DNA of 47,127 bases, taken from positions 69,712-116,838 of IMG/VR virus record IMGVR_UViG_3300037502_002518, one strand, 5' to 3'. Below, one piece after another: positions 15-9,900 of the stretch; the stretch's first letter is position 1, and each line of letters begins with the position of its first letter. The DNA is from a virus. Its lineage: Duplodnaviria > Heunggongvirae > Uroviricota > Caudoviricetes. Under the pieces are notes generated by a model. That model was not told the origin of the DNA. It did no database searches and saw only the letters and a list, made by a program, of their open reading frames with translations. A program made the position numbers and the translations under genes.

Positions 15-341
15 CTAAATTTTTCTAATCTCTGTTATATCAAAATATTTTTTTAAGTCAATGGTTGTACTAAACTTTAATCCTACACCTAATGTTCCAT
101 CATTCGTCATGTCTTGCGTAAAAGTAGTTGACGTTCTATTTAGAACAGAAACATCGTCAATTCCATCTGCTTCAAACTGAGATTGACTTGGTAACGTAGT
201 TGATACTGTTTGCCAGCCATTGTTATACGTTTTGTAATCGCCTTCATTTGCGAATGAAATAAGTGTTTTATTTTTCGTAAAATTGTACTCATGTGTCCAT
301 GTATCTGGAGTTCTACTCCACCTTGCTATTGCATAAGGCAT
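15..341 (-). CDS. Hypothetical virion/tail-fibre-associated protein
   Basis: 108-aa ORF with upstream RBS (AAGGGTGA). Resembles C-terminal segments of Bacillales tail-fibre accessory proteins. Sits at the end of the tail-tip operon. Confidence 0.45.
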   Translation of the reverse strand: MPYAIARWSRTPDTWTHEYNFTKNKTLISFANEGDYKTYNNGWQTVSTTLPSQSQFEADGIDDVSVLNRTSTTFTQDMTNDGTLGVGLKFSTTIDLKKYFDITEIRKI

Positions 342-345
342 TTAA

Positions 346-549
346 TCACCCTTTCTTGATATTCTTTCTATAATACTCATTCACATAAGGAGTTAGTGGG
401 TTGATATATTTTTTTGTTAAATTAAACCCATTGCAATACATTACCCATCCCTTGTATGAGCTGATACTACACCACTCAGAATAAGACATTTCTTTTCCAG
501 ATTTACACTTGTTTAAAATATTTCTCATTATCTTTATTAGATTAACAAA
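346..549 (-). pseudogene. C-terminal (thumb) remnant of a DGR reverse transcriptase
   Basis: (FVNLIKI)MRNILNKCKSGKEMSYSEWCSISSYKGWVMYCNGFNLTKKYINPLTPYVNEYY matches the recalled C-terminus of Bacillota DGR RTs (M.YSEWCSI.SYKGW...C...L..KYI.P...Y...YY). There is no YxDD core. The open frame begins directly after the stop codon of the CLec target gene. Confidence 0.8.
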
Positions 550-699
550 TTAATACACAAGCCGACAGGCGACAGACGAAATAGCAGCCGAAGCGGAATT
601 GTCCAAGAGGAGATTGAAAACTCCAGCATTCGAAGTATACGACCAATGACTACCAAAAAAAGCAACACGAGCAGAATAGAGAATACCATAATCGTACAG
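550..699 (-). repeat. DGR variable region (VR); no template repeat found in this window
   Basis: Only 1 of the last 49 sense codons ends in A (gga), in a genome rich in A-ending codons. Codons at expected variable positions are NNT/NNC (agt, cat, tat, ctc, gac, gct, att, tct), consistent with an AAY origin. Confidence 0.75.
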
Positions 700-1575
700 T
701 TTGCTACTGTCTGTTCCACCACCTGTTTTTATAATAAATCCTAAATCGCTATTATCATGTACATCTCCAATGTGTCCTAATACATCAGCACTTATTCCAG
801 TCGCATATACCTCATAACCAGCTCCACTGTCATTAAATCCAACATTTCCAATTAACACATTATAACTACTATCCGTTGCAATTCCATCCAACCAATAAAA
901 AGTATTCCCCCACAAATCTTCAATACCTCTATAACTTATTTGTTGCTTTCCAGTTGTTTCTCCAAATGTATTATTACCATACTGGAGTGTACTGCCTGTA
1001 CTTGTAGAACTACTGTTACCATCAACATAACCTCTACCAATCATCGTTTGACTGTCTGGATGTCCAAATTCAGTGATATATAATATCTGAATAGCATAAA
1101 TAAGGTTATAATCTGCTAGTCCCCAACCAGTTCCTCTATTTTCACAATATGTCCTTGCTGTACCAATATTAACATTACCTGCTGGTAACTTATTAGGTAA
1201 GCTTGTAGTAGTTGTCTCGCCACTGCCTACACCCATAAATGCTGACATATATCTATAGTCTACTTCTTCTGCAATACCATCTCCATTACGGTCTCTGTAG
1301 AATGCTGGGTGCAGTTCTAGGTCTGCTTCTTCTTTGTCAGAAATCTTAAAAACTACATCATCACCATCAATTTCTTTCTTATACCAAAATTTTGGTATCT
1401 CAACCATTACCTGCCCATCTGTTCCATTTAAAACAGCAGGACTTCCATCCTCTTTTAATGTAGAATCATTAGGGTCTAAATAATAGTTTACTGTCCCATC
1501 ATCCAGTAAGAGGCAACGTCTCATACCTCCCCACAATGTCTTTATGTCACTAAATTCATTTTGAATTATTGGCAT
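550..1575 (-). CDS. DGR-target-type receptor-binding protein (C-type-lectin/FGE-like fold, Mtd-like)
   Basis: Motifs GQVMVEIPKF, HPAF, YRGIEDLWGN and C-terminal GSHWSYTSNAGVFNLLLDNSASAAISSVACRLVY, typical of the G.W...S.AG.F.L.L...S.....G.RL variable-region end. RBS AAGGATGGTGG. Confidence 0.85.
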   Translation of the reverse strand: MPIIQNEFSDIKTLWGGMRRCLLLDDGTVNYYLDPNDSTLKEDGSPAVLNGTDGQVMVEIPKFWYKKEIDGDDVVFKISDKEEADLELHPAFYRDRNGDGIAEEVDYRYMSAFMGVGSGETTTTSLPNKLPAGNVNIGTARTYCENRGTGWGLADYNLIYAIQILYITEFGHPDSQTMIGRGYVDGNSSSTSTGSTLQYGNNTFGETTGKQQISYRGIEDLWGNTFYWLDGIATDSSYNVLIGNVGFNDSGAGYEVYATGISADVLGHIGDVHDNSDLGFIIKTGGGTDSSKLYDYGILYSARVAFFGSHWSYTSNAGVFNLLLDNSASAAISSVACRLVY

Positions 1576-3823: not shown

Positions 3824-4625
3824 AAACAAATCTATAACTTGTTCTAACTTTAATGTCTTGGCGACCTGCTCTTGCACTTGATGGAACAACAATCTTCATT
3901 GTTACATGTGCAAAGTTTGCTTTTGCTTCCGCATAAGACCCATTATTCTCTCCACCCAAAATTCTATCTTGGTTATTTGTTGGAGCGCTACGCTCTTTTT
4001 TTACAGTTCTATATTGTAAATTCCCTAATTCTTCCTCTTTGAACTCTGCCAAATCTTCTGTAGACCAAGTTGGCTCTGTAGGTAAAGTTGTTCCTGCACT
4101 AATAACTTCATAAACAAATCCATTGTCTACAGTTGGTGCAATAATGTCTCCAATGTTGTACGCAACACTTGCTGACCATGTTGTAGTTGTTCCACTTAAA
4201 ACATCTGGATGTGTTGTAATGCCTGTTCCAGAGCCAATTGGATGTGTAATATCTGCTCCAATTTGTGCAAAGTTTGTACTTGTCTCTCCTAGTGTTGGAG
4301 AGAAAGCTTGAAACCATTTTGTATCACCATTGATTGCCCAAACTTCTTTGCCTGTAATATCACCATTGTCACCTTCACTATCTTTAATCCCAATGGTTAC
4401 ATCTTCCATTGTTGGCGCATAATCCATTGAGTCTTTATTGTTCCAAACTAGAAAGTGGTGAAAATCTTCTTCAGATGGGACATAACCTGCATCTACAATC
4501 CCAAAATCATAAGGGTCTCCTGTTATTCCATATTCAATTGTGTTTGTTGTATTGCTTGGGTCTGTCACTAACGTCTCTGCATCATAATTCCACCAAGTTA
4601 CTACTGGGGCTGTTAATTTAGCCAT
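3822..4625 (-). CDS. Tail/baseplate protein with a W..S.AY.IGD carbohydrate-binding-like repeat
   Basis: Contains WSASVAYNIGDIIAPTVDNGFVYEVISAGTTLPTEPTW, paralogous to repeats in 11342..11992. Confidence 0.55.
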   Translation of the reverse strand: MAKLTAPVVTWWNYDAETLVTDPSNTTNTIEYGITGDPYDFGIVDAGYVPSEEDFHHFLVWNNKDSMDYAPTMEDVTIGIKDSEGDNGDITGKEVWAINGDTKWFQAFSPTLGETSTNFAQIGADITHPIGSGTGITTHPDVLSGTTTTWSASVAYNIGDIIAPTVDNGFVYEVISAGTTLPTEPTWSTEDLAEFKEEELGNLQYRTVKKERSAPTNNQDRILGGENNGSYAEAKANFAHVTMKIVVPSSARAGRQDIKVRTSYRFV

Positions 4626-4640
4626 TTAAATCTCTCCTTT

Positions 4641-5795
4641 TTAGTTGTCTATATTTACTATAATTTCTATAGTTACTCCTTCAATTGTTCCCGATAAAAC
4701 TTTTACATTTAATCTAAATACTTCATCTTTCACGACAGAACGAATCAACATTTTTTTATTTCCGTCATCTTTTACTTCTAGTGGTTGAAATTTTAAAATG
4801 TCTGTTCCATCAAAAACTGATGTCCAATCTGCCATATTTAAAGATTTCTCAACATCAATTTCTGTTGCAATGTCTTGACCTGCTTTAAAACAAATCCCTC
4901 TTACATCTACAATTTCTCCATCATATGGAAAATTTACCAGCACGTTATTTGCTCCAATGTTTAAATATGGAATGACAATGACAATGACTTTTTCTTTTGG
5001 AAGCTCTCCTAAATGCTCTAGCTTTTGAAAAGACTCTTTGGACATTAGTCCATCTTCCGTTTCTGAGGCATTTAATATAGACCCACCAAACAAATCAATA
5101 GGAATCCAATCGTTCCCATCATATCTGTACCTTATCCCAGAGTCGTAAACTTGAGTTGTCCACCCAATTGCTGGACTGGGGTAATTATACATAATGTCAT
5201 CATATGTTTGGACATAAGGTTTAAACACAAGCCTTGTTGTTTCATATGCATCCAAAGCTCTTTCTGTAGCATTGTCAGCTCTTTCTGTCGCAATGTTCGC
5301 ACTGTCTGTTGATACTTGGGATGCTTGTAATGCATCTTCTAACATCAACTTTAAAGATTCATAATCGTTTAGTTTTCCCTCAATATTTTTAAATTCATTT
5401 AGGGCTTTTTGAATAATTTGCTCTAAAGTCATTACAACATCATTGTTTTGGTCTTGATGAAAAATTCTAGAAGATGGGTACTGGATTAGACCCCTGCCTT
5501 TATAAGACAGGTTAACTGTGTCGCCTTCTTTATCTCTGCTAAATTGAATTATCCCTGTTGCATAGTCTACAGCAAAAGTTGTTGATGTTAACTCTCTTGC
5601 ATGATATTTTTCATAATTAACTTCTTGCATCCCTTGAATTATAACCCTATCGAACTTTGATGGAATTTCGCTCAAAACTACTTTCTGATTAATTACTTTT
5701 AAATGTTCAACTCTATCTGTATATGGGTCTTCCTCTGTTCCTGCTCTCCATATAATACGTATAGGGTCTAAGAATCCATAGTCGCTATATGCCAT
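4641..5795 (-). CDS. Baseplate/fibre adaptor protein (SPbeta YomF-like N-terminus, coiled coil, C-terminal beta domain)
   Basis: DP.....G...DPY, FAVDYATGIIQF and YKGRGL..YP.SRI motifs (recalled). Central coiled coil. Confidence 0.6.
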   Translation of the reverse strand: MAYSDYGFLDPIRIIWRAGTEEDPYTDRVEHLKVINQKVVLSEIPSKFDRVIIQGMQEVNYEKYHARELTSTTFAVDYATGIIQFSRDKEGDTVNLSYKGRGLIQYPSSRIFHQDQNNDVVMTLEQIIQKALNEFKNIEGKLNDYESLKLMLEDALQASQVSTDSANIATERADNATERALDAYETTRLVFKPYVQTYDDIMYNYPSPAIGWTTQVYDSGIRYRYDGNDWIPIDLFGGSILNASETEDGLMSKESFQKLEHLGELPKEKVIVIVIPYLNIGANNVLVNFPYDGEIVDVRGICFKAGQDIATEIDVEKSLNMADWTSVFDGTDILKFQPLEVKDDGNKKMLIRSVVKDEVFRLNVKVLSGTIEGVTIEIIVNIDN

Positions 5796-6985: not shown

Positions 6986-9900
6986 CTAGTTTAAGTCGAT
7001 TCTGCTACCAACAACTTTTACTCCGCTTGACGATATTTCAATATAATTGTTTGCATCTGCTCTTAGCCTTAAAACGTCTCCGCCAGATGATAATTCAACT
7101 CCAGTAAATGTCGCCAGTCCAGAATCATTAAAAGTTAAATGCTTTTCTTTTGCATATGAGTCTATATATTTAAACATAAATTTATCACTAGTCTTTTGAA
7201 TATAACCTCTGTCGTTTCCGTTATGGTCTCCTACTCCCCAAATCATTTCGGGGTAAGAGGTTTGAGCTGCTCCATTCAGTCTTATTATTAATTTTTCAAT
7301 ATCCGTAACACTTGTGTCTCCTGTCATTAGTTTCACAAAATTACTTCTGATATAAACATAATTTCTATATGTTGTAGGGTCAGCAGACTTAGGAATAGAC
7401 TTTAAACTGTTAACCATCAAATCAGAAATAAAGGCATCCGTTTCTTTGTCAAGAACTAGCTCTGACTCTCCGCCTTCTGGTTCAACAATAAGTTTCCTTG
7501 CTCTAATAGTTCCATCCATTGCAATCCAAATTCTTTTTTCTCCACCTACATCAATGGCGAACCCTTCTTCTTGATTTAATCTAATTTCTTCTCCATTTGA
7601 CCCAAAGACTGTTATACCTGTCTCTGCATCTAAAAGAATATTATTACCTAAATCACCATCAATAATTTTTAACCTTTTAGCAACTAAATCCTCTGCAATC
7701 AATGTTCCATCTGGAATGTCTGGATTCCCGATTGAACCATATATTTTATTCTCCCAATATACTCCATTCCATTTTTGTAAAGCTAGTCCATTTGTTGCAT
7801 TTAAAATAGCTCTATATTTCCCATCATCTCTAACTGCAACAAATCCTGCATCGCTCATCATTAAGTTGTTATAATATCCACCCATATTTATTCCAGAATA
7901 AGCCATAGAGTCTTCAATTTTATTTCTTAGTTTTTCTGCTTCGTCATAATATGTTTTGAATTTAAGAATAAACTCTGCTCTGTCGTTTACAGGTGTTGTT
8001 TGTTCTGTCAGTTCATCTGTTACATTAATCAATATTGGCTCATGAGGAGGTAGTGAAGTAACTTTAATGAAGCTACTAATATAAGAGACAAGCGAAAGAT
8101 ATGCATTTCTTAATGGTGCAATAGAATATAAATCTATATTACTCGCTGTCTCTGGGAATCTTTGAGTGTAAATGTCAAAAGCTCCATCAAGGTTTATATC
8201 TTTATCTCTACTGCTTCTTTGATATTTTTCAGCTTGAACTTTTAATGATTGATATTGAGAGCTTATTTGGTTCATTTCTTTTATAATTAACAGTTTTTCA
8301 TCTGTTGTCATCTTCCCGTCTTTTACAATCTTATTGAAGAACCCTAAGTTGAACTCTCCCGTTTCTGCATCAAGAATAATGTTGTCAAATTCATCATTGC
8401 TTACAATTTTAATGTTGCTCGCAATCATGTCTCTGCTGTATAATATTCCTGTATTTGGGTCTGTCCAAAAAATCTTTTTCCATCCGTCTGGATGTTTTAG
8501 GGTGTCAGTTGTTAATTGCTCAACAGCAAATCCTTCTAAGTCAGATATTGTGACCTTGTTGACATTGTTAAATGCTGTCAGACCAAATTCATCTGGGGTT
8601 TCATCAATAAGACCTAATTTCATTACCAGATTTCCTTCTCTGTCGAAAATCTCACCTTTAGAGCCTTGGAATTTCAAAACTCCGTCTTCGTCTTCTAGTG
8701 CAAGGTTTACACCCATGAAAATTTTTCCATACACACGCTCCCCAATAATTCCCTCGCTCGTTATGGCATGCTTCCAAGTATTCCCACCATCGTTGGTGAT
8801 AGCAATCATACCATTAATACCAACAAGATAAACATTTGGGTCATTAGGGTCTCTAATTATTAACCCTCTGTCTGAGATTTCAACAACTTGGTCTTTTGCT
8901 CCAACAATTGCCTGTTTGTTGGCATCCCATATACCATTAATAATTTCATTAATTTTACCATTGTTTTCTTTAGATAAGTCCCACTTCCAACTATCAATAT
9001 CAACAACAGAAGATGAGCTATATGACTTATAAAGCATTTCTAAGAATTTGTCTTGGTCGTTCTTTAAAGCTTCAACATTACTAATTGTTAAACTAATGTC
9101 ATCTGTTTCAAAGTCGTGTTCAATTTCAGTAATCTTAGCTTTGTAATTCATCTCTAATCTTTCATACTCTATTCTAAACGAATCTCCCAATACAACCTTG
9201 TCCCAGTTGTGCTGTTCTGTTATAGCAGAGAATAAATTAAACAATGAAACTGTAAGAGTAATTCTTTGTTCTTGCATTTGGTCAAAAACTTTGTGACCTT
9301 CTTCAAATAAATCATCTGGGTCAGTAATATTGGTATCTTCCCATTCCTCATCGTGAATGAAAGAATTCCATTCTGTTATCTCATCGTTAGTGAAGTTGTT
9401 GTGAATTGCAAGCTCTTCTCTAAGCAATTCAATCTCATAGTCCACTTCTGCAACATCTTGCTCATAGTATATATTCTCATTCTCTTGGCTATCAATTAAA
9501 CCTTTTTGAATTTGAATTTCGTTTAATATAGAATCTCTTTGTGAAACCAAGTCATTCATTTCGTCTTCTAATATTGGTTTCATTGTTTCATCATATCTAT
9601 TGTCTGCACTATCTATTTCATCAGACTTTTTCGCAATCCTAGTGTTTAGAGCATCTCTTTCATCAAGTAAGGTAGCAAGATGTGACTTTAGTCCAAATAG
9701 GTTGCTATCTTCATTATTTAATATCTCTTGCAGAGTCCTCTTTTGTCCAAGTAGCGTATTGAATTCATCTTCTTTACCTCTAACTTTATCACGATATTTT
9801 ATAATAGCATGAGCAAGTTCATCACTCATGTAATCACTTTTAGTTATTACTGTATAAGTCCCATCTGGATGTAATTCTTCTTCATATGGCTGAAGGTAAA

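Follow-up and report, generated by a model that had tools for sequence, protein, structure and literature searches.

Accessory-less diversity-generating retroelements (DGRs) have been described as Architecture A, and an avd-lacking Lineage 3 is recognized among them (Wu et al. 2018, PMC5758913). In Bordetella phage BPP-1, where the order is mtd-avd-TR-brt, both the IMH and a hairpin behind the variable region (VR) are needed; residual activity without the hairpin is low, and supply of the machinery in trans works experimentally (PMC3240598). The closest described system to the locus treated here is that of Psychrobacillus phage Perkons (MT325768; locus L001 below), the best match when the 341-aa target protein of this study was searched by tblastn against phage genomes (ORF176, 54% identity over the full length). 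ORF176 is followed by 381 non-coding bases and then by the annotated reverse transcriptase (RT) ORF175; the cassette occupies L001:5971-8493 (positions 90877-93399 of the record), with the VR at L001:6895-7031 and the template (TR) at 7117-7253. This 137-nt pair lies 222 nt apart and all 32 of its 32 mismatches are at TR adenines. A 24-bp hairpin follows the VR, the RT has 358 aa, and the DGR is apparently intact and avd-less. The best solved relative of the Perkons RT is 8ub7_A (E 6e-38), which bears only the PDB title 'Reverse transcriptase' and which we take to be the Bordetella DGR RT. The GenBank annotation of the Perkons cassette consists of 'reverse transcriptase' alone, and the 2026 paper on this phage never mentions the retroelement (PMC13245101).

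The window, meaning the whole 47,127-nt stretch of DNA analysed here, corresponds to bases 69712-116838 of a 116,838-bp phage record (IMGVR_UViG_3300037502_002518) which has direct terminal repeats and is rated complete; at its left end all genes are read from the minus strand. The locus at this end is very probably the wreck of a compact, avd-less phage DGR that has lost about 1.2-1.3 kb, a reading drawn from homology, synteny, the absence of TR and RT, a TR-type gene end and the recurrence of such wrecks among relatives. A first-pass annotation, made from the letters alone, had called the locus a fossil DGR, and this holds, as an RT-derived stub stands where syntenic relatives carry VR, TR and RT; its description of the layout (TAA at 550-552, the in-frame peptide FVNLIKI, an ORF from an RT end) was accurate on re-reading. 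The features are as follows:

550..1575, minus strand: DGR target gene for a 341-aa tail protein with a C-terminal CLec variable domain; the ORF is intact and ends with the stop TAA at 550-552
562..690, minus strand: body of the VR, the variable codons being -47 to -7 counted from the stop
553..561, minus strand: TR-type 3' end of the target gene (CTT GTG TAT), with the motif TTGTGTAT at 553-560
544..552, minus strand: stop TAA and the 6 nt behind it, whose origin is uncertain but is probably the TR 3' flank; in-frame alignment with three RTs locates the breakpoint here
346..543, minus strand: RT remnant, corresponding to residues 284-346 of the Perkons RT and the stop codon after them (BLASTP, phmmer, PHROG, RT-family profile)
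346-528, minus strand: the called 60-aa ORF within the RT remnant (ATG 526-528, TGA 346-348)
342..356, minus strand: ribosome-binding site (RBS) of the downstream gene, inside the last codons of the RT remnant (AAAGGGTGATTAA, then ATG 339-341)
15..341, minus strand: downstream 108-aa ORF, homologous to the N-terminus of the post-RT gene of relatives (tblastx, PHROG 10667)

The target gene sits at the distal end of the tail module, and PHROG 5302 'tail protein' matches it over residues 14-341, most of the protein (E 4.5e-65); Pfam returned nothing useful for the target, the 60-aa ORF or the 108-aa ORF, and assigned no family to the target. Its AlphaFold model (pLDDT 92.9) was compared with solved folds by Foldseek, and the top PDB folds were TaqVP 5vf4 (E 1e-12) and Mtd 1yu0 (E 6.5e-5), then FGE and TvpA; these matches bear out the earlier naming of the gene as a CLec target. 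The protein is predicted from this model to be a C-type-lectin DGR variable protein with a CLec / FGE-like fold and the VR on its C-terminal face. The signature of adenine mutagenesis is present in the VR: among the alleles of the window, locus L003 and contig L005 there are 28 variable columns, 21 of which stand at adenines of the TR of the related locus L004 (Fisher p 1e-8), an indirect test made through L004 as the window's genome itself has no TR.

Behind the target stop, 21 nt (FVNLIKI) share the target frame and lead into the ATG at 526-528. Compared with the Perkons RT by BLASTP, the 67 post-stop codons are 57% identical over 63 residues (RT 284-346, E 6e-26), and this positive check of the peptide against a DGR RT agrees with the first reading of the stub as an RT end. 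A phmmer search of the stub against 1.8 billion representative proteins returned 128 hits, 41 of them at E<=1e-10; all full-length hits that were checked carry Pfam RVT_1, with the stub match at their C-terminus. PHROG 1423 'reverse transcriptase' also matches (E 6e-4), and a profile built from 50 cassette RTs places the stub at profile positions 284-337 in the six-frame translation of the genome. The stub is the C-terminal end of a DGR-type RT, with membership of the family read from homology of the C-terminal segment only. The start Met of the 60-aa ORF is conserved in some intact RTs, including those of Perkons, L006 and L092. Against the C-terminal RT profile the stub scores 54.7 bits, inside the range of the 50 intact RTs (32-85), and no decay is visible. 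The closest RT C-terminus is that of L092 (70% identity), whose RT has its own TR and VR; a search for an intact RT with a near-identical C-terminus found none more than 70% identical to the stub. At L092:3-2506 this closest RT adjoins a target only 30% identical to that of the window, so that RT and target modules have been shuffled.

The remainder of the cassette was sought in the complete genome. Searching the VR region against the 116.8-kb genome by blastn at word size 7 gave nothing longer than 45 nt besides the self-match, and the same kind of search detects the TR in about 50 relatives. RVT_1 has no match in the complete genome and the RT catalytic core (YxDD) is absent from it; the 50-RT family profile, run on the six-frame translation of the whole genome, matches the stub alone and no second RT. 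The absence of TR and RT core that had been read from the window is therefore confirmed by blastn, RVT_1 and RT-profile searches at the scale of the genome. As there is no template and no polymerase core in the complete genome, the phage cannot rewrite its own receptor-binding tip: the DGR hypermutation system is dead in the window's genome and the VR variant is fixed there.

Relatives were retrieved from IMG/VR by an alignment query of the target; querying with the target alone or the stub alone gave no relatives. About 50 of the 80 IMG/VR loci fetched with the target alignment carry the VR/TR/RT layout with mismatches almost all at adenines; in these the distance from the stop to the start of the TR is about 30-210 nt (mostly 40-90), and roughly another 110-290 nt separate the TR from the RT start. 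L004 (target 74% identical) and L006 (60%) both have the target-VR / TR / RT layout, with 20 of 20 VR/TR mismatches at TR adenines in L006 and 21 of 24 in the BLAST alignment of L004 (25 of 32 in MAFFT columns). There is no ORF between target and RT in the intact relatives, and the avd family PF05635 is absent from the window's own genome, from Perkons and from two relatives with intact cassettes. This is the layout that Wu et al. 2018 (PMC5758913) class as Architecture A, which has no accessory gene, and avd is not part of the subfamily. Because the cassettes of the intact relatives have no avd, none was deleted in the window; the first-pass annotation had counted avd among the deleted parts, which does not agree with intact relatives that hold only a TR between target and RT, nor with the lack of PF05635 in the complete Perkons genome. 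The TR-RT spacer of Perkons, L004, L092 and L026 contains a stem-loop (GCCTTGGC, four bases, GCCAAAAC, then a CACA-rich tract; L001:7285-7310, L004:1388-1412, L092:1346-1372); this conserved element could be part of an RNA that primes cDNA synthesis in the avd-less family.

By tblastx the window is colinear with Perkons on both sides, and what is missing from it is Perkons L001 ~7060-8265. In-frame alignment with three RTs shows that RT homology starts at AAT 541-543; the TTT GTT past the stop does not fit the conserved Ala/Tyr-Lys codons of these RTs, and in the TR flank of L092 AATTT follows GTAT. On the other side of the junction the target gene ends in TTGTGTAT, a motif with 8 occurrences in the 116.8-kb genome when both strands are counted. 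TR 3' ends of near relatives read TTTGTGTAT (L001, L004, L026, L076), with variants in L006, L033, L054, L065 and L092, and the TR-flank motif was found at none of 41 VR ends. The signals of an acceptor are absent from the window, which has neither a VR-type 3' end (IMH) nor a downstream hairpin; the fold at the junction is no better than shuffled sequence (z 0.17) compared to z -7.6 in Perkons, and loss of the hairpin, as first proposed, is thereby upheld. The locus with the closest VR, L003, has flanks nearly identical to those of the window and keeps a VR-type end with a small hairpin, as does L004. The end of the window's target gene is, as judged from these alignments, TR-derived; since it carries the TR-flank motif that is absent from the VR ends of relatives, the joining of VR to TR end would be part of the loss. 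Two points of the original account need revision here: the left breakpoint had been put just past the VR, where the last codons are in fact of the TR-flank type found at 0 of 41 VR ends, and VR/TR recombination, which had been set aside, enters the event through the TR-type gene end. Breakpoints are placed to about 9 nt, the closest intact relative (L004) being only 74% identical in the target.

In whatever order and number the deletions came, the relic consists of VR body, TR 3' flank and the RT from codon 284 on, the parts being separated by 6-9 bases whose origin is uncertain, and it may have been made in one event or two. Relatives show what the ancestral layout was: the target, with the VR at its C-terminus, was followed by a short hairpin and a promoter, next came the TR, and beyond a spacer of about 110-290 nt lay the RT, whose 3' end carried the translation start signals of the next tail gene. 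Missing from this in the window are the last codons that belonged to the VR itself, together with the hairpin, the body of the TR, the spacer between TR and RT, and RT residues 1 to ~283; the VR body, with mutagenised non-template bases at every variable site, remains, joined to the TR 3' flank (GTGTAT) and, a few bases past that flank, to RT codon 284 onward, which lies in the target frame by chance. Microhomology between the TR flank and RT codons 276-296 was considered as a deletion hotspot and rejected, the longest shared word averaging 6.1 against a background of 6.04 in 30 relatives; L004 has a 9-nt repeat between the two.

VR/TR repeats and VR heterogeneity are known to break or mis-join metagenome assemblies, and an intact cassette in the true genome could in this way have been hidden. 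The same architecture is present in three assemblies made by different assemblers: besides the IMG record, the Logan assembly SRR11566350 has a 73-kb contig in which the target protein is identical and its gene is again 208 nt away from the next one, and in a MEGAHIT contig at ENA (L005) every base of the junction agrees. No repeat is common to the joined ends, and the IMG contig is complete by its direct terminal repeats. An assembly artefact at the junction is accordingly unlikely, and an intact cassette in the true genome has next to no probability.

Loss is recurrent, as the target family contains four or five independent DGR wrecks with different deletions: the window, L003, L043, L060 and perhaps L088. 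In L003 (target 87% identical) the VR-type end and hairpin are separated from the next gene by 75 nt, and only the last ~30 of these match the RT 3' end. Behind its target stop L060 has a stretch of about 85 nt with homology to the TR-RT spacer of L046, its intact sibling, and the RT resumes at about residue 285; L060:4560-4835 and L046:1900-3280 form a dead and intact sibling pair from the same metagenome (3300020576), and only the trinucleotide TGC is common to the two sides of the second L060 junction. L043 (IMGVR_UViG_3300028044_000037, 4560-4800) keeps VR and hairpin intact; the 5' part of the TR follows for about 70 nt, with many AAT codons, and past it only the last ~21 RT codons precede the next gene. 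L088 has an RT stub from the same Met as the window's, 107 nt from the contig end. In some ten further loci whose CLec end is complete, no RT occurs within 1.1-3.5 kb. The RT 3' terminus is retained in every relic, and three relics break within RT residues ~284-297. A switch-off of a special kind, as the first-pass annotation had supposed for the window, is not what this series of wrecks with differing deletions suggests.

The region shared by the relics is also where the next gene begins. The 108-aa ORF of the window starts at 341, four bases past the stub TGA, with its RBS in the last stub codons; in L046 and L060 the RBS and start of the next gene lie inside or overlap the RT 3' end, and the RT end and the ORF behind it have ~37 nt in common in Perkons and L006. 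L003 keeps the RBS-bearing piece of ~30 nt (about 26 of 29 aligned bases match), all else of the RT being lost. By tblastx the 108-aa ORF matches the N-terminus of Perkons ORF174, and it is visibly similar to the N-terminus of the L003 downstream gene. It covers only the N-terminal ~100 residues of this longer post-RT gene (at least 469 aa in L003; 450 aa in Perkons ORF174), and homology to the remainder resumes ~1.7 kb further on in the Logan contig, after a 415-aa SPRY / F5_F8-type-C gene; this split homology suggests module exchange in the distal tail genes.

A simple reason for the retention of the RT 3' end in the wrecks would be that the RBS or start of the next gene sits there. Survival of the stub in the window is probably due to this and to a young deletion, youth being argued from a profile score that is still within the range of intact RTs. 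The 60-aa ORF itself is most likely a non-functional by-product, because it has no Shine-Dalgarno sequence, L003 and L043 do without the stub, and three of four look-alikes are frameshifted RTs. Retention of the ORF as something useful, either a thumb-derived nucleic-acid-binding protein or a DNA signal for the downstream tail genes, is very unlikely: the open frame, the Met start, the undiminished profile score, the identity of the stub in L005 and the retained RT 3' end of all relics would fit such a role, but no Shine-Dalgarno sequence is seen before the ATG at 526-528, L003 and L043 have only the last 10-21 RT codons, and a promoter scan of the stub gave 11 promoter-like sites, near the 7.2 expected by chance, none of which stand out. 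Short database proteins that start from the same Met were considered as independent stubs and mostly set aside; in three of the four contexts inspected (L089, L090, L091) they are frameshifted full-length RTs, and the fourth, L088, may alone be a true stub; most of the short look-alikes whose context was inspected proved to be frameshifted or contig-edge RTs and not genes of their own.

L005, a 1,437-nt MEGAHIT contig (ENA ERZ27247966), carries a second VR allele on the junction of the window. The two are 100% identical over 240 nt from the VR end through junction, stub and start of the next gene, and their VRs differ at 21 positions, 18 of them in TR-adenine columns, with 16 codons changed and differences at codon positions 1/2/3 numbering 11/10/1; the alleles of window, L005 and L003 are about equidistant (20-23 differences). 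A receptor variant frozen by the deletion, as originally envisaged, thus describes the window's own genome; at L005 another DGR-style VR occupies the same junction, so that the annotation's other option, a target served in trans, keeps a small probability. This allele is not predicted by a single dead, frozen lineage; the undecayed stub and the three relics that end at RT ~284-297 could likewise point to constraint or mechanism. The observation of two VRs on one junction rests on one short contig; since L005 was assembled at k=141, a chimeric contig is unlikely.

Acquisition of the second VR by recombination, through a crossover or short conversion tract with a DGR-positive or VR-diverse sibling that ended in the conserved bases before the junction while the relic stays dead, has a probability only a little short of even, and it is favoured because the target gene is a mosaic in short patches elsewhere, with blocks of 100% identity between window and L005 alternating with blocks of 65-90%. 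RT and target modules are shuffled among the relatives in general. Against this, only 12-24 conserved bases lie between the last variable site and the junction on the 3' side, and no donor was found: neither an N-masked VR/TR pattern nor the exact string of the junction was matched in IMG/VR or the JGI metagenomes, which yielded no donor TR and no further alleles. A donor for the VR may be host-borne. At 761-810 of the window, a 50-nt block of the target has 15 differences from L005 with ~100 nt on either side identical; the L005 version resembles more distant relatives, the block encodes a surface loop outside the VR, and it points to short-patch allele exchange there.

That a VR with no RT, no hairpin and a TR-type end is still being rewritten, whether in trans by the retroelement of a sibling or by a recurrent 'self-deleting' cDNA junction, is unlikely as a whole. 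For the first of these, the RT-less target would be an orphan acceptor instead of a frozen relic, diversified by a co-infecting sibling phage or a host prophage. The identical junction and flanks beside VRs that differ mainly at TR-adenine columns are in keeping with this, as are the near-equal distances among the three alleles, which independent draws from one TR would give; L003, a second independent loss with a near-identical target 3' half outside the VR, speaks for recent DGR-positive siblings, and the trans supply achieved with BPP-1 is a precedent (PMC3240598). Homing in trans is disfavoured because the hairpin is lost and the gene end is TR-type, not VR-type, whereas BPP-1 needs both IMH and hairpin (PMC3240598). 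In addition, the N-masked pattern has no TR- or VR-like match in IMG/VR or the JGI metagenomes, no RT exceeds 70% identity to the stub, the IMG and Logan assemblies show the same VR, and the support is one 1.4-kb contig; diversification in trans is consequently rated as decidedly improbable.

The second possibility makes the retroelement itself the author of the junction: an aberrant cDNA, composed of a mutagenised TR copy, its flank and the RT 3' part reached by a template jump, would have replaced the segment from VR to RT, and would do so recurrently. The variable sites of the window and L060 are non-template right up to the TR-type flank, a state expected from a VR x TR crossover at the extreme 3' edge only, and the two VRs on one junction and the three relics at RT residues ~284-297 would be accounted for together. 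The idea is purely inferential, no parent with an identical RT C-terminus was found, the L060 junctions differ with ~85 nt of spacer kept, the L003 and L043 deletions are quite different, and in 30 intact relatives the TR flank and RT codons 276-296 show no more microhomology than the background; such an origin is a very long shot. Recombination with a sibling is the reading favoured here for L005.

DGRs are usually catalogued only when complete, and their loss in phages is poorly documented; in the window nearly every base of the loss can be traced, and the family offers a small series of independent wrecks with a common rule, in which all is lost except the piece of the RT gene that holds the translation start of the next gene. 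Annotation can profit from this: where a short 'hypothetical protein' follows a CLec tail gene, it may be an RT stub, and an 'orphan' VR does not by itself imply a DGR elsewhere. The locus also bears on when hypermutation stops paying, as a case of a phage confined to a single receptor variant. The second VR allele on the same junction is the only point of potentially wider importance; if the allele is real and not recombinational, either the needs of a retrohoming target would be looser than in the BPP-1 model or its side more self-destructive.

Among known systems, the target model comes structurally closest to the Thermus aquaticus protein TaqVP (5vf4; E 1e-12, probability 1.0), although sequence identity is 15%, the protein is cellular and not of phage origin, and with a TM of ~0.5 the CLec core alone is held in common. 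The BPP-1 system (mtd-avd-TR-brt) is similar in the adenine-specific VR/TR differences seen in the relatives, in a CLec variable protein at the tail tip (the Mtd fold match), in the relation of the Perkons RT to 8ub7_A and in a hairpin after the VR in Perkons, L003 and L004 (PMC3240598); it differs in having avd, in GC-rich hairpins where those of this family are AT-rich, and in possessing the TR, RT core, hairpin and VR-type end that the window lacks. Perkons resembles the window in synteny on both sides, in target (54% identity) and RT C-terminus (57%), in a target-TR-RT order without avd and in a next tail gene that overlaps the RT end; Perkons is intact, however, while the window is without TR, hairpin and all of the RT except residues 284 to the end. 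With Architecture A (PMC5758913) the intact relatives share the target-TR-RT core, the lack of avd, the CLec-type C-terminal VR and the phage tail context, the likeness being one of layout, and the window's copy differs in being non-functional. The window locus is thus a dead Architecture A phage DGR with a CLec tail target, of a known kind and fairly ordinary.
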